In this document: piece by piece, positions 13,010-25,759 of the stretch
How positions within the stretch are numbered: position 1 is the first letter of the stretch
Layout: every line of letters begins with the position of its first letter
Assembly (NCBI RefSeq): GCF_058153355.1
Contig: NZ_CM177019.1
Reading direction: 5' to 3' (one strand)
Length of the DNA stretch: 64,000 bases
The notes under the pieces: generated by a model
What the model saw: only the letters and a program-made list of their open reading frames with translations
Database searches by the model: none
Told to the model about the DNA's origin: nothing
Made by a program: the position numbers and the translations under genes

Positions 13010-15346
13010 ATGAAGCAAATTCGTCTGCTGGCGCAGTATTATGTTGACCTGATGATGAAGTTAGGTCTGGTGCGCTTCTCAATGTTGCTGGCGCTGGCCC
13101 TCGTCGTTCTTGCCATTGTGGTACAAATGGCAGTGACCATGGTGCTGCATGGTCAGGTCGAAAGCATTGATGTTATTCGTTCTATCTTCTTTGGTTTGCT
13201 GATTACGCCGTGGGCGGTCTACTTTCTATCGGTGGTCGTTGAGCAATTGGAGGAGTCACGACAACGTCTGTCACGGCTGGTGCAAAAACTGGAGGAGATG
13301 CGCGAGCGCGATTTGAGCCTCAACGTTCAGTTAAAAGATAATATTGCCCAGCTAAATCAGGAAATTGCCGTTCGTGAAAAAGCGGAAGCAGAACTGCAGG
13401 AAACCTTCGGCCAACTGAAAATTGAAATTAAAGAGCGCGAAGAGACACAAATTCAGCTCGAGCAGCAATCCTCATTCTTACGTTCCTTCCTTGATGCTTC
13501 ACCCGACCTGGTTTTTTATCGTAACGAAGATAAAGAGTTTTCCGGCTGTAACCGCGCGATGGAGCTGCTGACCGGAAAAAGCGAAAAACAACTGGTTCAT
13601 TTAAAACCTGCTGATGTTTACTCGCCGGAAGCTGCCGCGAAAGTTATTGAAACCGATGAAAAAGTATTTCGTCATAATGTGTCTCTGACCTATGAACAGT
13701 GGTTGGATTATCCCGACGGACGCAAAGCCTGCTTTGAAATCCGTAAAGTGCCGTACTATGACCGCGTGGGTAAACGTCACGGTTTAATGGGTTTTGGTCG
13801 CGACATTACCGAGCGTAAGCGGTATCAGGATGCGCTTGAACGCGCCAGCCGCGACAAAACGACGTTTATCTCCACCATCAGTCACGAATTGCGTACACCG
13901 CTGAACGGTATCGTCGGCCTGAGCCGCATTTTGCTGGATACTGAACTTACCGCTGAGCAGGAAAAATATCTCAAAACAATCCATGTTTCGGCCGTCACGC
14001 TGGGGAATATCTTCAACGATATTATTGACATGGATAAGATGGAGCGGCGCAAGGTCCAGCTTGATAATCAGCCAGTTGATTTCACCAGCTTCCTTGCCGA
14101 TCTGGAAAATCTCTCCGCATTGCAGGCGCAACAGAAAGGGTTGCGCTTTAATCTGGAACCGACGCTGCCATTACCGCATCAGGTCATTACTGATGGGACG
14201 CGTTTACGGCAGATCCTGTGGAACCTCATCAGTAACGCCGTCAAATTTACCCAGCAGGGCCAGGTTACCGTGCGCGTGCGCTACGATGAAGGCGATATGC
14301 TGCATTTTGAAGTGGAAGACTCTGGTATCGGCATTCCGCAGGATGAGCTGGATAAAATCTTCGCCATGTATTACCAGGTGAAAGACAGTCATGGCGGTAA
14401 ACCTGCCACTGGCACCGGTATTGGTCTGGCCGTTTCTCGTCGTCTGGCGAAAAATATGGGCGGCGATATTACGGTTACCAGCGAACAGGGCAAAGGTTCA
14501 ACCTTTACGTTGACGATCCACGCACCGTCGGTAGCAGAAGAGGTTGATGATGCGTTTGATGAAGACGATATGCCTTTACCGGCGCTGAATGTGCTGCTGG
14601 TGGAAGACATTGAACTGAACGTGATTGTCGCACGCTCTGTGCTGGAAAAATTAGGTAACAGCGTTGATGTCGCCATGACCGGCAAGGCGGCGCTGGAGAT
14701 GTTTAAACCGGGCGAATACGACCTGGTGTTGCTGGATATTCAGTTGCCAGATATGACCGGGCTGGATATCTCTCGTGAACTGACGAAGCGTTATCCGCGC
14801 GAGGATTTACCGCCGCTGGTGGCCTTAACCGCTAACGTGCTGAAAGACAAACAAGAGTACCTCAATGCTGGAATGGATGATGTGCTGAGTAAGCCGCTTT
14901 CTGTTCCGGCGCTAACCGCGATGATCAAGAAATTCTGGGATACCCAGGATGATGAGGAGAGTACGGTGACGACAGAAGAGAACAGTAAATCAGAAGCATT
15001 GCTCGATATTCCCATGCTGGAACAGTATCTCGAACTTGTAGGACCGAAGCTGATCACCGATGGGTTAGCGGTGTTTGAGAAGATGATGCCGGGATATGTC
15101 AGCGTGCTGGAGTCGAATCTGACGGCGCAGGATAAAAAAGGCATTGTTGAGGAAGGACATAAAATTAAAGGTGCGGCGGGGTCAGTGGGGTTACGCCATC
15201 TGCAACAGCTGGGTCAGCAAATTCAGTCTCCTGACCTTCCAGCCTGGGAAGATAACGTCGGTGAATGGATTGAAGAGATGAAAGAAGAGTGGCGTCACGA
15301 CGTAGAAGTACTGAAAGCGTGGGTGGCAAAAGCTACTAAAAAATGA
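13010..15346 (+). CDS. arcB: Aerobic respiration control sensor histidine kinase (hybrid kinase with receiver and HPt domains)
   Basis: 778-aa ORF; N-terminal TM segments, H-box (SHELRTPLN), receiver domain and C-terminal HPt; adjacent to ArcZ. Confidence 0.95.
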   Translation: MKQIRLLAQYYVDLMMKLGLVRFSMLLALALVVLAIVVQMAVTMVLHGQVESIDVIRSIFFGLLITPWAVYFLSVVVEQLEESRQRLSRLVQKLEEMRERDLSLNVQLKDNIAQLNQEIAVREKAEAELQETFGQLKIEIKEREETQIQLEQQSSFLRSFLDASPDLVFYRNEDKEFSGCNRAMELLTGKSEKQLVHLKPADVYSPEAAAKVIETDEKVFRHNVSLTYEQWLDYPDGRKACFEIRKVPYYDRVGKRHGLMGFGRDITERKRYQDALERASRDKTTFISTISHELRTPLNGIVGLSRILLDTELTAEQEKYLKTIHVSAVTLGNIFNDIIDMDKMERRKVQLDNQPVDFTSFLADLENLSALQAQQKGLRFNLEPTLPLPHQVITDGTRLRQILWNLISNAVKFTQQGQVTVRVRYDEGDMLHFEVEDSGIGIPQDELDKIFAMYYQVKDSHGGKPATGTGIGLAVSRRLAKNMGGDITVTSEQGKGSTFTLTIHAPSVAEEVDDAFDEDDMPLPALNVLLVEDIELNVIVARSVLEKLGNSVDVAMTGKAALEMFKPGEYDLVLLDIQLPDMTGLDISRELTKRYPREDLPPLVALTANVLKDKQEYLNAGMDDVLSKPLSVPALTAMIKKFWDTQDDEESTVTTEENSKSEALLDIPMLEQYLELVGPKLITDGLAVFEKMMPGYVSVLESNLTAQDKKGIVEEGHKIKGAAGSVGLRHLQQLGQQIQSPDLPAWEDNVGEWIEEMKEEWRHDVEVLKAWVAKATKK

Positions 15347-15458
15347 CCCCGGCTAGACCGGGGTGCGCGAATACTGCGCCAACACCAGGGAAATCTTGGC
15401 TGCGCCGTAAATTATTATGATGAGTTACAAGGGCACAGCACTGTTTTTCAGGCCGCAC
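15338..15458 (-). ncRNA. arcZ: ArcZ small RNA (Hfq-dependent), antisense to the arcB 3' end
   Basis: The reverse complement of ~15338-15458 matches the ArcZ sequence as I recall it (GTGCGGCCTGAAAAACAGTGCTGTGCCCTTGTAACTCATCATAATAATTTACGGCGCAGCCAAGATTTCCCTGGTGTTGGCGCAGTATTCGCGCACCCCGGTCTAGCCGGGGTCATTTTTT), with terminator hairpin CCCCGG/CCGGGG and T-run overlapping the arcB stop. Confidence 0.75.
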
Positions 15459-15575
15459 GCAGTTAAGATAGCAAAACTTAAATGATTTGTTACATGAATC
15501 AGTTAAATGTGTGATGCGTAGCATTTTTATTAAAAAAATTAATGTGTTTCAGTCAATTGCGAAAGGATGATCACA

Positions 15576-16229
15576 ATGAAGAAAATTGGCGTAATTCTGA
15601 GCGGATGCGGCGTCTATGACGGTTCTGAAATTCATGAAGCGGTGTTGACGTTGTTAGCTATTTCACGCAGCGGTGCGCAGGCGGTCTGCTTTGCACCGGA
15701 TAAGCAGCAGGTTGATGTTATCAACCATTTAACTGGCGAAGCGATGACGGAAACGCGCAATGTGCTGATTGAAGCGGCACGAATAACGCGCGGTGAAATC
15801 CGTCCTCTGGCTCAGGCCGATGCCGCTGAACTGGATGCGTTGATTGTGCCGGGGGGGTTTGGCGCGGCGAAGAATTTAAGCAATTTTGCCAGTCTTGGTA
15901 GCGAATGCACCGTTGACCGTGAATTAAAGGCGCTGGCACAAGCGATGCATCAGGCCGGAAAACCGCTTGGTTTTATGTGTATTGCCCCGGCGATGCTGCC
16001 GAAAATTTTCGATTTCCCGCTGCGTTTGACCATCGGTACTGATATCGATACCGCAGAAGTGCTGGAAGAGATGGGCGCGGAGCATGTGCCGTGTCCTGTC
16101 GATGATATCGTGGTTGATGAAGACAATAAGATTGTCACCACCCCGGCATATATGCTTGCGCAGAACATTGCAGAAGCGGCGAGCGGCATTGATAAGCTGG
16201 TTTCCCGCGTGCTGGTTCTGACTGAATGA
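15576..16229 (+). CDS. elbB: DJ-1/PfpI-family glyoxalase-like protein ElbB
   Basis: ORF 15567..16229; conserved start [16 protein letters not shown] at ATG 15576; 217 aa. Confidence 0.85.
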
Positions 16230-16954
16230 GTAAAAGCCGCTTAACGGTGTTTAGTTTCGTTCGCCGTTTTCTTCTACGGTTAATGGTTGTCCTCGCCATT
16301 TTCTGGGGCGGGGGCATCGCGTTGTTTAGCGTTGCGCCTGTTCCTTTCTCAGCGGTAATGGCCGAGCGACAAGTCAGCGCCTGGCTGCATGGCAATTTTC
16401 GTTACGTGGCACATTCTGACTGGGTCAGTATGGATCAAATCTCGCCGTGGATGGGACTGGCGGTGATTGCCGCAGAAGATCAGAAGTTTCCTGAGCACTG
16501 GGGCTTTGATGTCGCTTCCATTGAGCAAGCCCTGGCGCACAACGAGCGCAATGAAAACCGTATTCGCGGCGCATCAACGATTTCTCAGCAAACAGCCAAA
16601 AATCTCTTTTTATGGGATGGACGTAGCTGGGTACGAAAAGGGTTGGAAGCCGGATTAACGCTGGGGATAGAAACAGTCTGGAGCAAAAAGCGTATCCTGA
16701 CGGTTTACCTGAATATCGCCGAATTTGGCGACGGTGTGTTTGGCGTCGAAGCTGCGGCACAACGTTATTTCCACAAACCCGCGAGCAAACTTACCCGGTC
16801 GGAAGCTGCGTTACTGGCTGCCGTATTACCTAATCCACTGCGTTTCAAAGTCTCCGCGCCATCGGGCTATGTGCGTAGCCGTCAGGCGTGGATTTTACGG
16901 CAGATGTATCAGTTAGGCGGTGAGTCGTTTATGCAACAACACCAGCTGAATTAA
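16226..16954 (+). CDS. mtgA: Monofunctional peptidoglycan glycosyltransferase
   Basis: 242-aa ORF with N-terminal TM anchor and transglycosylase motifs (…[12 protein letters not shown]…); ATGA overlap with elbB. Confidence 0.9.
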
Positions 16955-17583
16955 GCTTCGCGCGAAGTGAGGGCCAGCGTTTTGCTCTCACGTGGTTGCA
17001 GATCTTTCTGTAGGGCAATAGCCAGTGCCGGCTGGGCGATAAACCGTTTCCATAACCGCTCTTGCTTTCGCTGACAACACCACTTTGACCAGGTCGCCAG
17101 TGGAATCAACGTGCTTTCACCAATGTTGTCGCAGACGACGGGGATAACCTCTGACTCACTGATGCGGTGACAGAGGATATTCTGCGGCTTCAACGACATC
17201 GTCACGATATGGTTATCCTGCAAATAACGTTTCAGCTGTTTCAGTAACTGGCGCAGCTGTGCAACGTCTTCTTCGTAACGGCATTGTTCTGCAAATTCGG
17301 TCAGCGTAACGGAGGGCTTACCGTCGAAATCGGCAATCACATCGTAGACATAACCCGTTCCGCAATCCGTCTCCACGGTACCGTGATAGCGCGGTATTCC
17401 ACTCCAGTCTTTTAACCGGCGACCAAGATGCGCGTAATACTTTAACTCACGGCGGATCTCTTTATCACCACCATCACCACGGTGGTAGACAATCTTGATA
17501 CAGCGTTGGGCATCTTCCGGATGCGCATAACATTTCCGATGTCTTCCGGTGCCCAAGGGATTTTGTTCAGATAAGCGAATCAT
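16951..17583 (-). CDS. yrbL: PhoP-regulated protein YrbL
   Basis: ORF 16951..17640; conserved start [24 protein letters not shown] at the ATG on the minus strand ending at 17583; PhoP box lies just upstream. Confidence 0.75.
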
Positions 17584-17633
17584 ACCATCTCTTGGAAATA
17601 TTTTCTGACGATCTCCAGTATGGTCGAATAACT

Positions 17634-17650
17634 TAAACAAAACCTAAACA
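17634..17650 (-). promoter_or_regulatory. PhoP box (direct repeat TGTTTA-N5-TGTTTA) upstream of yrbL
   Basis: Minus-strand sequence TGTTTAGGTTTTGTTTA read directly, about 50 nt upstream of the yrbL start. Confidence 0.6.
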
Positions 17651-17795
17651 ATGCCTCTTAAGGTTTTCTTAAGGTTCTTCTGAAAGTGAAAAGCGCACAA
17701 AATGTACAATTTCCGTCATTAATAACGATTTCAGTACGCGCTTTTTTTATTGTCGGGGGGAGCTTGAAGGGATTTGTATGTCAAAGTGATGAAAA

Positions 17796-18068
17796 TTAAT
17801 CTTCATCAAAACCAGAGTTAAAGAGGGCGATAACGGCGGCCAGTGCTTCCTCTTCCTGTGGACCGGTCGCTTCGACTTCAATCTGCCGTCCTTTGGCAGA
17901 ATCCAGCATCAGCAGCGCAATAACGCTGTTGGCTTCAGCTTCAGTGCCTTCATCGTTACGTAACAGCACTTCAGCGTCAAAACCCTGCATTAATTCAAAC
18001 AGCTTCATTGCAGGCCGGGCATGCATGCCCAGCTTGTTTGTGATTTCAACAGTTTGCTTGACGGTCAT
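17796..18068 (-). CDS. ptsO: Nitrogen-PTS phosphocarrier protein NPr
   Basis: 90-aa HPr-like ORF (…GMHARPAM…); last gene of the rpoN operon. Confidence 0.9.
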
Positions 18069-18919
18069 GGTTTACGTTTTTCCAGCGTACGATGGCGTGA
18101 CTGGACGTTTTTACCGCGTGAACGGAAGTAGTCTGCCAACTGCTCTGCAATATACACCGAACGGTGCTTCCCGCCAGTACAACCAATGGCGACCGTCAGG
18201 TAGCTACGGTTGTTGGTTTCCAGCATAGGTAACCATAGCTCAAGATAGCTTCGCGTCTGGTAAATAAAATTGTGTACTTCTGTGTGGCGGTCGAGGAACG
18301 CGGCGACAGGCTTATCAAGACCTGTCATCGGACGCAGTTTTGGATCCCAGTGCGGGTTCGGCAAGAAGCGCACGTCAAAGACGTAATCTGCATCGATAGG
18401 GATACCGTGTTTGAAGCCGAAAGACTCAAAGACCATGGTCAGTTCGCGTTCACGTTTACCCAGTAAACGGGTACGCAACATTTCTGCCAGCTCGTGAACG
18501 GACATTTCTGAGGTATCGACAATCAGATCCGCTCGCGAACGCAGTGGTTCCAGTAGATCGCTTTCTTTGTCGATAGCACTTTCCAGCGACAGGTTTTTGC
18601 TGGAAAGGGGATGCAGGCGGCGCGTGTCACTGTAACGACGAATTAAGGTATTACGGTCGGCATCCAGGAACAGGAGTTGCGGTGAGAAAGCGTCAGGTAG
18701 GTTACTCATCGCCTGTTCGAATATTTCTGGTGACTCCGGCATATTACGAACATCAATGCTGACGGCGGCAGAAATCTCGCGATCGGCCAGAGTTCGAGCC
18801 AGATCGGGTAACAACACTACGGGGAGGTTATCCACGCAGTAAAAACCCATATCTTCCAGCGCACGAAGGGCGACAGATTTACCTGAACCTGAACGTCCGC
18901 TGACGATCATCAGTACCAT
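18065..18919 (-). CDS. rapZ: RNase adaptor protein RapZ (P-loop NTPase)
   Basis: 284-aa ORF with Walker A GRSGSGKS; between ptsN and npr. Confidence 0.9.
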
Positions 18920-18964
18920 GTACTGTTTCTCCTCACAACGTCTAAAAGAGACATTACCGAATAA

Positions 18965-19456
18965 CTACGCTTCATCCGGAGTACCTTCGGTATCCGTAAT
19001 GATTTGATACAGCTCTTCATCGCTCTGGGCTGCGCGTAAACGGCGGCAGATGGTTTTATCCGCCAGACGTTTCGCCACCAGCGACAGAGTATGCAGGTGC
19101 GTTTTGGTTTGGTCAGCCGGAACCAGCAACGCAAACAGTAAATCTACCGGTTGGTTGTCAATGGCATCGAAAGCTATGGGCGTTTCGAGCTGAACGAAAA
19201 CGCCAACGGCGCGCAGAGTATCTTCTTCCAGTTTGCCATGCGGAATGGCTATACCATTGCCGATACCGGTACTGCCCATTTTTTCCCGCGTCAGGATAGC
19301 TTCAAAAACCACCTGAGGCGGCAGGCTAAGTTGTTTCGCCGCCAGCTCGCTGATGATTTCCAGGGCGCGTTTTTTGCTCTGACAGTGGACGCGGCTTCGC
19401 GTACATTCCCTGTTAAGAACAGTGCTAAGCTGTAGAGTTGTATCATTATTTGTCAT
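18965..19456 (-). CDS. ptsN: Nitrogen-PTS EIIA(Ntr)
   Basis: ORF 18965..19480; conserved start MTNNDTTLQLS at the ATG ending 19456; 163 aa. Confidence 0.85.
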   Translation of the reverse strand: MTNNDTTLQLSTVLNRECTRSRVHCQSKKRALEIISELAAKQLSLPPQVVFEAILTREKMGSTGIGNGIAIPHGKLEEDTLRAVGVFVQLETPIAFDAIDNQPVDLLFALLVPADQTKTHLHTLSLVAKRLADKTICRRLRAAQSDEELYQIITDTEGTPDEA

Positions 19457-19573
19457 AATTTCACCTAAGAACCTGCTCACTCAAACGGTGGAACAGGTTC
19501 GGAGCATTAACTGTACAAATGGCCCGTTGTGCCGCACAACAGGCCGCCATGCACATGCTAATTGCCCGGACAA

Positions 19574-19861
19574 TTAGTGTTGTTTCAGTTTATCTTTATG
19601 TTTGGTCAACTGGCGTGCCAGCTTATCAATTAAGCCATCAATGGCAGCGTACATGTCCTGACCTTCCGCGCTGGCATGAATTTCACCACCGTTTACATGC
19701 AGTGTTGCATCTGAGGTATGGGTGACTTTCTCCACTTTCAGAACAACATAGACCTGGTTGATTCGGTCAAAATATTGCTCAAGTTTGGCAAATTTAGCAG
19801 TAACAAATTCGCGCAGTGCCTCGGTGATCTCGACGTTATTTCCGGTAATGTTGAGCTGCAT
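19574..19861 (-). CDS. hpf: Ribosome hibernation promoting factor
   Basis: ORF 19574..19945; conserved start MQLNITGNNVEITEALR at the ATG ending 19861; 95 aa; immediately downstream of rpoN. Confidence 0.85.
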   Translation of the reverse strand: MQLNITGNNVEITEALREFVTAKFAKLEQYFDRINQVYVVLKVEKVTHTSDATLHVNGGEIHASAEGQDMYAAIDGLIDKLARQLTKHKDKLKQH

Positions 19862-19883
19862 AGTGTCTTCCTTATCGGTTGGG

Positions 19884-21317
19884 TCAAACGAGCTGTTTAC
19901 GCTGGTTTGACGGCGGAATGGATAAAGACTCTCGGTACTTCGCAACAGTGCGGCGTGCCACCATGATACCTTGTTCCGACAGCAAAGAGGTTAACTTGCT
20001 GTCGCTCAACGGTTTCGCTGGGTTTTCCGCCGCGATTAATTTCTTCACCAGCGCACGAATTGCCGTTGAGGAAGCTTCGCCGCCGCCCTCGGTATTGACG
20101 TGACTGGAAAAGAAATACTTCAGTTCAAAAATGCCTCGTGGACTATGCAGGTATTTTTGCGTGGTCACGCGAGATATCGTCGATTCATGCATTTCGACAG
20201 CCTGGGCGATATCGGCCAGTACCATCGGTTTCATATATTCTTCGCCTTGCTCAAAGAAGGCTTGCTGCTGTTCAACGATACAGCGACTCACGCGTAGTAG
20301 CGTATCGTTACGGCTTTCCAGACTCTTGATCAACCATTTGGCATCCTGCAGATTGCTGCGGATAAACTGGCTGTCACCGTCGTTGCGCGCGTTATTGCAC
20401 ATCGAGGCGTAGTGCTGGTTGATTTGCAGACGCGGAATGCTGTCGCTATTGAGTTCTACCGTCCAGTGACCGTTATGCTTACGTACCAGTACATCTGGAA
20501 TGACATACTCCGGTTCGCCAGTCTGGATCGACTGTCCGGGGCGTGGATCGAGCGACTGGATCAGATTGACGGCTTCTTTCAGCACATCTTCTTTCAGTCG
20601 CGTGACGCGCATTAAGGTACGGAAGTCGTGATTGGCTAACAGATCGAGATGATCGCTAATGATCAGTCTCGCCTCTTCCAGCCACGGCGTAGTTTTATCG
20701 AATTGGGAGAGTTGGATCAGCAGGCAGTCACGCAGATCTTTCGCCGCTACGCCGACCGGATCAAACCGTTGGATCCGCTTCAGGACGGCTTCAACTTCAT
20801 CGATGTCGATTTCTTCATCGCCCATACTTTCGAGAATATCTTCCAGCGGAACAGTCAGATAACCGGTGTCATCAACGGCATCGACGATAGAGGTAGCAAT
20901 AGCGCGGTCAGTGTCGGAAAACGGTGTCAGCTCGACTTGCCACATCAGGTAATCTTGCAAGGTCTGCGTTGTTTCGCCCTGATAGACCGGCAGCTCGTCG
21001 TCAATGTAGTCACCGCTGGTGCCGGAGGGTGTACCAGCGGTGTAAATGGTGTCCCAACTGGCATCGAGCGGCAGCTCTTCCGGCATCTCTTTTTGTTCGA
21101 GTGCGTCGGCGGTGTCCAGTGTTTCACTGTCTTGCGTTTCGCGGGTGTCGATTTCTTCATGAGTGTCGATTTGCTCAAGCAGCGGATTACTCTCCAGCGC
21201 CTGCTGTAGCTCCTGCTGAAGTTCCAGCGTCGACAACTGCAACAGACGAATAGCCTGTTGGAGCTGTGGCGTCATCGCCAGTTGTTGGCTAAGCCTGAGT
21301 TGCAAACCTTGCTTCAT
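19884..21317 (-). CDS. rpoN: RNA polymerase sigma-54 factor
   Basis: 477-aa ORF; Gln/Leu-rich N-terminus ([33 protein letters not shown]) and C-terminal RpoN box ([10 protein letters not shown]). Confidence 0.95.
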
Positions 21318-24781: not shown

Positions 24782-25759
24782 TTATTCAACGAGTATTGGC
24801 GATAACCAGTACAACATCGCCAGCCATACGATAAATCCGCCAGTTAATAATACCCCTACACCACGGCCTGGTTGCGGGGAGCGCCGCCAGCACAGCAACG
24901 CAAAAATAATGCTCACCAGCAACATCACGCTGTAGTCACGACTGTACGCCAGTGGATCAATCTCTCCAGGCGTTATCAGCGCGGGTAAACCCAACACGAT
25001 GACAATATTAAAAATGTTTGCGCCAATGATATTCCCGACAGCAATGTCGTTTTCACCTTTGCGAACCCCCGCGATTGCGGTTGCCAGTTCTGGCAGACTG
25101 GTTCCGATAGCGATTGCCGTCAGACCCATCGTCAACTCGCTGATGGCAAAGTAATTCGCCAGCACCGTGGCGTTATCAACCACCATCCGCGTGGCCACTG
25201 GCATGATGATCAGCGCAATGCCGAGCCATAAAAACGCGACGGGCAATCCGCCTTCACGCGGCAGCTCTGCAAGCTGCTCTCTGGTCAGGCTGTCAGTCCC
25301 CTGACATTCAGCCAGACGTGCAAGTTTAACAATGAACAGCAGCCATAGCACAGCCAGAAAGAGGAGAAAGATACCATCGCTGCGACTAAGTTGTCCGTCA
25401 TAGAGTACGGAACCGGCCACTACACTGACCAACAACATTAAGGGTAATTCGCGGCGCAGAACATCGGAATGGACGGTAAAAGGACGTACCAGCGCAGCCA
25501 GACCGAGGATCAGCAAAATATTGATAATGTTTGATCCGAGGGCTACACCAACGGCTAAATCGCGTTGTTCGTGCAGTGATGCGGCAAGCGAAACGATGAT
25601 TTCTGGTAACGATGTGCCAATACTGACCACCGTCATGCCGATGATCAGTGGCGGTATGCCAAAGGATCGGCAAAGAATGGACGCGGCAAATACCAGGCGG
25701 TCGGCACTGTAAACGACCAAAAGTAAACCAACAATTAACAGTGCCGTAGCTAAAAGCAT
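24782..25759 (-). CDS. yrbG: Ca2+/Na+ antiporter family inner-membrane protein
   Basis: 325-aa hydrophobic ORF with duplicated GTSLPE motifs; divergent from mlaF. Confidence 0.85.
   Translation of the reverse strand: MLLATALLIVGLLLVVYSADRLVFAASILCRSFGIPPLIIGMTVVSIGTSLPEIIVSLAASLHEQRDLAVGVALGSNIINILLILGLAALVRPFTVHSDVLRRELPLMLLVSVVAGSVLYDGQLSRSDGIFLLFLAVLWLLFIVKLARLAECQGTDSLTREQLAELPREGGLPVAFLWLGIALIIMPVATRMVVDNATVLANYFAISELTMGLTAIAIGTSLPELATAIAGVRKGENDIAVGNIIGANIFNIVIVLGLPALITPGEIDPLAYSRDYSVMLLVSIIFALLCWRRSPQPGRGVGVLLTGGFIVWLAMLYWLSPILVE

Follow-up and report, generated by a model that had tools for sequence, protein, structure and literature searches.

The npr-yrbL locus

The DNA analysed here (the window, a stretch of 64,000 nucleotides of contig NZ_CM177019.1) is colinear with the K-12 order mlaE...rpoN-hpf-ptsN-rapZ-npr-yrbL-mtgA-elbB-arcZ-arcB over 20 kb at 97.5% identity. 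As the preliminary description had stated, yrbL adjoins the rpoN operon, in the order rpoN-hpf-ptsN-rapZ-npr / yrbL / mtgA, and the npr / yrbL / mtgA context is the same in K-12. A 951-bp query (features npr, yrbL and mtgA) matched 5425 of the 5426 complete E. coli genomes. The features of the yrbL promoter region are collected in Table 1. The small RNA ArcZ (Rfam RF00081, 120.8 bits) was also found at 15351-15458 on the minus strand, 100% identical to K-12, and the ORF track over-extended two further genes: ptsN, listed with 171 aa from GTG 19480 (18965-19480, minus) and annotated with 163 aa from 19456, and elbB, listed with 220 aa from 15567 (15567-16229, plus) and annotated with 217 aa from 15576.

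Table 1. Features of the npr-yrbL region in window coordinates
Feature	Position	Strand	Location or basis
npr (ptsO), last gene of the rpoN operon	18068..17796	minus	directly upstream of yrbL, same strand; ORF list, RefSeq, K-12 mapping
Conserved block TTGTACATTTTGTGCGCTTT, core TACR-N4-GTGC	17709..17690	minus	alignment conservation
PmrA/BasR box CTTAAG-AAAAC-CTTAAG	17673..17657	minus	6 bp upstream of the PhoP box
Linker AGGCAT	17656..17651	minus	between PmrA box and PhoP box
PhoP box TGTTTA-GGTTT-TGTTTA	17650..17634	minus	-35 region of the yrbL promoter
Spurious 19-codon (57-nt) extension of the ORF track	17640..17584	minus	promoter and leader DNA, non-coding
Spacer AGTTATTCGAC, 11 nt	17633..17623	minus	PhoP box to -10
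-10 hexamer CATACT	17622..17617	minus	hexamer and 11-nt distance as in Salmonella yrbL
33 nt including AAGAG	17616..17584	minus	between -10 and ATG
Predicted transcription start	17614, within a few nt	minus	transferred from the Salmonella S1 map
Ribosome-binding site AAGAG	17593..17589	minus	alignment to other E. coli
yrbL coding sequence, 210 aa (633 nt)	17583..16951	minus	RefSeq, Pfam PF10707, homolog N-termini

Both RefSeq and Pfam name the product of yrbL 'PhoP regulatory network protein YrbL'. A PDB sequence search with YrbL returned only a marginal match to a kinase domain (STK17B, E = 0.008), so no solved structure of YrbL was apparent. On a human gut metagenome contig (L020, 1201-2991) we identified two convergent YrbL-family genes beside a Kdo/WaaP-family kinase gene (PF06293), outside the npr-mtgA context. 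This PF06293 neighbour, faint Pkinase hits and the marginal STK17B match are hints that YrbL may be a small kinase linked to the cell envelope. Mutations in yrbL arise under antimicrobial-peptide selection. A contig of Tannerella forsythia ATCC 43037 (contig135, locus L013, 420 bp) encodes residues 1-129 of a YrbL that is 96% identical to the E. coli protein, which is almost certainly E. coli contamination of a Bacteroidota assembly.

The PhoP box and the yrbL promoter

The preliminary description had reported a repeat TGTTTA-N5-TGTTTA on the minus strand, about 50 nt upstream of the conserved MIRLSEQ start of yrbL. We found this repeat with its half-sites at 17650..17645 and 17639..17634, and it ends 50 nt before ATG 17583..17581. 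All 12 positions of (T/G)GTTTA-N5-(T/G)GTTTA are matched. The exact form TGTTTA-N5-TGTTTA occurs once in the 64 kb, counting both strands, where 0.01 occurrences are expected from shuffled sequences; one of 100 shuffled windows held an exact match. When one mismatch to KGTTTA-N5-KGTTTA was allowed, a single extra site appeared at 25724..25740, which is at chance level. For the position weight matrix scan that had been suggested as a check, a matrix of 19 columns was derived from 25 published Salmonella PhoP activation boxes (Table 1 of Zwir 2012, PMC3335776), with yrbL excluded. The segment 17651..17633 ranked first in the window at 22.5 bits, above the best training site (19.1 bits) and above the maxima of all 50 shuffled windows (mean 14.6, highest 19.7). 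The second-best match was CTGTTAATTGTTGGTTTAC at 25741..25723 (minus, 16.3 bits), just inside the 5' end of yrbG; with a score within the range of the shuffled-sequence maxima, it is probably due to chance.

We compared the promoter among 14 syntenic npr-yrbL regions, one genome per genus. A contig scan with one protein gave only Escherichia and Citrobacter, and the more distant genera were reached through protein hits and the contigs that carry them. The distance from the PhoP box to the ATG was 50-53 nt across 10 genera. The hexamer CATACT was invariant in the 12 aligned Escherichia and Citrobacter sequences and also occurred in 12 of the 14 syntenic promoters that were scored, and its distance to the ATG was 33-37 nt across species. 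A consensus sigma-70 scan of 17400..17900 found no promoter, a result that is expected, and uninformative, for an activator-dependent promoter that lacks a -35 element.

The preliminary description had concluded that PhoPQ controls yrbL, and published experiments on the identical box in Shigella or the orthologous box in Salmonella bear this out. The Shigella flexneri yrbL box is listed as the 19-mer tTGTTTAggtttTGTTTAa, identical to that of the window (Lin 2018, PMC5775216). In the same study, phosphorylated PhoP shifted the Shigella yrbL promoter in a concentration-dependent manner in the gel-shift assay, a lacZ assay agreed, and deletion of phoPQ lowered the yrbL transcript to 0.02 of the wild type by microarray, a roughly 50-fold drop (PMC5775216). 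For Salmonella yrbL, a DNase I footprint and an S1-mapped start have been reported, and the promoter was assigned to 'architecture I' (Zwir 2012, PMC3335776), its single box, TCGTTTAGGTTTTGTTTAA, being directly oriented and separated by 11 nt from the downstream -10 hexamer CATACT. Transcription there begins at a single start that depends on PhoP and low Mg2+, giving a 32-nt leader, and class II activation was predicted because the box overlaps the -35 region (PMC3335776). Salmonella yrbL is the earliest-induced yet lowest-expressed PhoP target. In E. coli, the yrbL promoter is PhoP-activated and belongs to the Mg2+ stimulon (Minagawa 2003 and Zwir 2005, as cited in PMC5775216), and yrbL serves as a standard PhoP reporter in later work. 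Perez 2009 makes no mention of yrbL.

The window promoter closely resembles these characterized promoters. K-12 has exactly the same PmrA box, PhoP box (tTGTTTAggtttTGTTTAa) and -10 hexamer (CATACT), whereas its 11-nt spacer between box and -10 has A where the window has T, and its ribosome-binding site is AGGAG instead of AAGAG. The PhoP box of Shigella flexneri is likewise the same. The geometry of architecture I, a single direct box that ends 11 nt before the -10 hexamer and lies over the -35 region, was found in the window. Salmonella shares the single direct box, the 11 nt to CATACT, a leader of similar length (32 nt, against about 31 nt here) and a PmrA box whose centre is about 23-24 bp upstream of that of the PhoP box, but its first half-site is CGTTTA (TCGTTTAGGTTTTGTTTAA), while both half-sites in the window are TGTTTA. 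The canonical class II promoters of mgtA and phoP also carry a (T/G)GTTTA-N5-(T/G)GTTTA box that overlaps the -35 region and precedes the -10 hexamer by one helical turn. They differ from yrbL in the distance between box and -10 (12 nt, against 11 nt for yrbL) and in that no adjacent PmrA box has been reported; the mgtA promoter differs further by its long regulatory leader.

Short T-rich repeats are common between genes, and the exact match in one of the shuffled windows could be taken to mean that AT-rich intergenic DNA has produced the repeat by chance and that it plays no part in regulation. This reading has a negligible probability: it is opposed by the low expected number per window, by a matrix score above all shuffles and training sites, and by a position that is fixed relative to the conserved -10 hexamer and the ATG across genera, and the gel-shift, footprint and expression results published for the identical or orthologous box refute it. 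We therefore hold with high confidence that the repeat is the PhoP site of the E. coli yrbL promoter and that the 229-aa ORF reaching into it, described below, is an accident.

From the Salmonella S1 map, we infer that the yrbL transcript starts near 17614, which would give a leader of about 31 nt (17614..17584) and place the start 26 nt downstream of the TTG of the longer ORF. The transferred start lies only 2 nt past the -10 hexamer, which is unusually close, and it could be in error by a few bases. At the yrbL ribosome-binding site the window has AAGAG, against AGGAG in nearly all other E. coli, the difference lying at base 17592; the exact 33-mer with the A variant at 17592 was present in 4 of the 5426 complete E. 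coli genomes. Judged by this substitution, the window strain probably translates YrbL less efficiently.

In the proposed mechanism, PhoQ would sense low Mg2+, antimicrobial peptides or acid pH and phosphorylate PhoP. A PhoP dimer would then bind the two TGTTTA half-sites head-to-tail, standing in for the -35 element, and recruit sigma-70 RNA polymerase to CATACT 11 nt downstream, in the class II manner of architecture I. Transcription would proceed from about 17614 into a leader of about 31 nt that bears the ribosome-binding site, and translation from ATG 17583 would yield the 210-aa, kinase-like YrbL. Activated PmrA/BasR (Fe3+) would repress the promoter through the CTTAAG-N5-CTTAAG box 6 bp upstream of the PhoP box.

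The translation start of yrbL

The ORF list contained a 229-aa ORF that starts at TTG 17640 (peptide MFKLFDHTG...). The preliminary description had argued that this longer start would overlap the regulatory repeat, and the TTG (17640..17638) does lie inside the box, where it consists of the last spacer base and the TG of the second half-site. The stop codon that opens the long ORF, TAG 17646..17644, is made up of the TA of the first half-site and the first spacer base. Given that both the TAG and the TTG are inside the PhoP box, the boundary of the long ORF is a by-product of the repeat itself. The TTG further falls within the -35 region and precedes the transcript start taken from the Salmonella S1 map.

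The shorter start that had been favoured on these grounds was upheld by RefSeq, by Pfam, by the N-termini of homologs, by the lack of conservation of the TTG and by in-frame stops. RefSeq places the start at the ATG, giving 210 aa, both in a strain of 99.7% identity and in K-12 (b3207). Pfam PF10707 was matched with 232.6 bits (cut-off 31.5; E = 3.6e-69), with profile positions 1-184 on residues 2-185, and the 19 extra residues fall outside the profile. We aligned 23 homologs down to 34% identity: close relatives start at MI.LS, distant ones at most 4 residues earlier, and the N-terminal extension was present in none of the 23.

At the DNA level, the TTG is replaced by TTC in Escherichia sp. 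MOD1-EC7003 and at three of the four Citrobacter loci, C. amalonaticus retaining TTG. It is TCG in O157:H7-type E. coli, where the promoter reads TGTTTAGGTTTCGTTTA; the exact 41-mer was found in at least 841 of 5426 genomes. The extension is interrupted by in-frame stops, 48 nt before the ATG in both E. albertii and C. amalonaticus and 21 nt before it in Salmonella, and the Citrobacter sequences carry compensating +1 and -1 indels in the extension region. The TTG is preceded by a single purine-rich stretch, AAGAGG, whose end is 13 nt from that codon, a distance too large for a ribosome-binding site, while ATG 17583 is preceded by AAGAG (usually AGGAG) at a 5-nt spacing.

It is conceivable that a 229-aa YrbL is real, being translated from TTG 17640 on transcripts that read through from rpoN-npr or arise at an upstream promoter, with the PhoP box doubling as coding sequence. 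No stop interrupts the frame between 17640 and 17583 in the window strain, in K-12 and in several Escherichia species, the ribosome-binding site of the ATG is weakened in the window strain, and a terminator scan of 17400..17900, together with folding, found no canonical terminator between npr and yrbL in this strain. A read-through RNA that contains the TTG may thus exist; nothing suggests that translation begins at the TTG. The loss of the TTG in at least 841 E. coli genomes, in MOD1-EC7003 and at most Citrobacter loci, the stops in E. albertii, C. amalonaticus and Salmonella, the Citrobacter indels, the absence of the extension from homologs, Pfam profile columns and RefSeq models, and the distant AAGAGG all speak against the 229-aa form, which we regard as very improbable. 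The sequence comparisons indicate that translation of yrbL starts at ATG 17583 and that the longer start is an artefact.

The PmrA box, the upstream block and natural variants

Next to the PhoP box lies a PmrA/BasR box that was absent from the preliminary description. Its sequence, CTTAAG-N5-CTTAAG, is unique in the window (0.07 expected) and fits the published PmrA box CTTAAG-N5-xTTAAT except that the second half-site ends in G, not T. The centre-to-centre distance to the PhoP box is 23 bp here. PmrA has been reported to repress yrbL directly in E. coli, and the same is predicted in Salmonella, with the boxes about 24 bp apart (sources including PMC3335776). An independent transcriptome study of E. 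coli B adapted to Fe(III) found higher expression of basR, eptA and the arn genes, with yrbL among the most strongly decreased genes, which fits repression by PmrA. As a guess, PmrA might repress by interfering, sterically or cooperatively, with PhoP or the polymerase alpha subunit.

In the 14 syntenic promoters, the PmrA box was more widely conserved than the PhoP box. A PmrA box with 11-12 of 12 matches stood at the homologous position in 13 of the 14. The PhoP box matched at 12 of 12 positions in E. coli, E. whittamii and E. albertii and at 9-11 of 12 in Citrobacter, Salmonella, Enterobacter hormaechei and Superficieibacter, and it was unrecognizable in Pluralibacter and Cedecea. Such a distribution raises the alternative that yrbL is, family-wide, primarily under PmrA/BasR control and that the PhoP box is a lineage-restricted addition (Escherichia, Salmonella and some Citrobacter), PhoP control being secondary. 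The promoters that retain a PmrA box of this quality include those of Siccibacter, Pluralibacter, Cedecea and 'Erwinia sp. CPCC 100877', in which there is either a degenerate PhoP box (8-9 of 12) or none. However, in E. coli and Salmonella it is the PhoP box that activates, PmrA only repressing; the sample holds one genome per genus; and degenerate boxes (9-10 of 12) can still bind PhoP, judging by the spread of published sites. We consider this alternative unlikely, though worth keeping in mind; it concerns evolutionary history and is compatible with PhoP activation of yrbL as the main explanation for the window.

Upstream of the PmrA box, alignment revealed a conserved 20-bp block. In the 12 Escherichia and Citrobacter sequences 19 of 22 columns were invariant and the flanks diverged. 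The distance of its core, TACR-N4-GTGC, from the ATG is 111-114 nt in 11 of the 14 syntenic promoters; in Pluralibacter it is 96 nt. The block, TTGTACATTTnGTGCnCTTT, occurs once in the window and equals the PmrA box in its degree of invariance; in most of the syntenic genera sampled, a constant distance separates it from the PmrA box downstream. Several candidate identities were considered. As the 3' arm of an npr terminator the block was rejected: folding in six species gave no shared structure (z from -0.8 to 0.0, except in C. amalonaticus), and in C. amalonaticus, Pluralibacter and one further Escherichia (locus L023) a canonical terminator lies upstream of the block. An Rfam search of 15000..20000 at a relaxed threshold returned only ArcZ and a chance snoRNA match, with no hit on the block. 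Comparison by eye with CRP, sigma-54, MarA, ArcA and sigma-S motifs gave nothing convincing or conserved. The published RstA box TACATNTNGTTACA, also compared by eye, was matched at 8 of 12 specified positions, the conserved GTGC differing from the second half of the RstA box. The first half of the block resembles a TACA half-site of the RstA or OmpR type; this likeness to RstA, confined to the first half-site, is a weak lead. One may speculate that yrbL has a three-input promoter, in which the block would be the site of a third regulator and the PmrA box, not the PhoP box, would be ancestral across Enterobacteriaceae, but on these alignments we think this rather doubtful.

The locus also varies within E. 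coli. Identity to K-12 is 95.3% for yrbL and 93.3% for the npr-yrbL spacer, lower than for their neighbours (97-99%). The npr-yrbL intergenic region (17560-17800) is a rare allele, with at least 99% identity in only 18 of the 5426 E. coli genomes; the other matches were all below 95%, 5401 genomes at 90-95% and 3 at 80-90%. The differences are concentrated in the npr-proximal half, and the promoter core is unchanged. The second half-site of the PhoP box is polymorphic, TGTTTA in the window and CGTTTA in O157-type strains (E. coli O157:H7 ECP19-2498, locus L026; AVS0710, locus L027), and AVS0710 also has the spacer GATTT within the box; because the second half-site varies among E. coli, the 'perfect' PhoP box is allele-specific. 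The yrbL promoter of E. coli 2009C-3133 (locus L025, 3196-3893) is split by an IS1A element, which sits between PhoP box and -10 hexamer and is accompanied by a 9-bp duplication, AATCGACCA. Since the element parts the activator site from the core promoter, this allele would be a natural knockout of the yrbL promoter.

The PhoP-dependent promoter of yrbL is already known and well characterized, so the finding reported here is correct but not new. RefSeq has the start of yrbL right and the ORF track makes the gene 19 codons too long, which has little significance beyond annotation hygiene. The analysis places the window promoter among the well-characterized PhoP-activated, PmrA-repressed promoters. 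Its by-products may be of interest to those who study YrbL, and workers on PhoP and PmrA may find use in the wider conservation of the PmrA box, the conserved upstream block and the natural promoter variants: the TGTTTA or CGTTTA second half-site, the weakened ribosome-binding site and the IS1 insertion.
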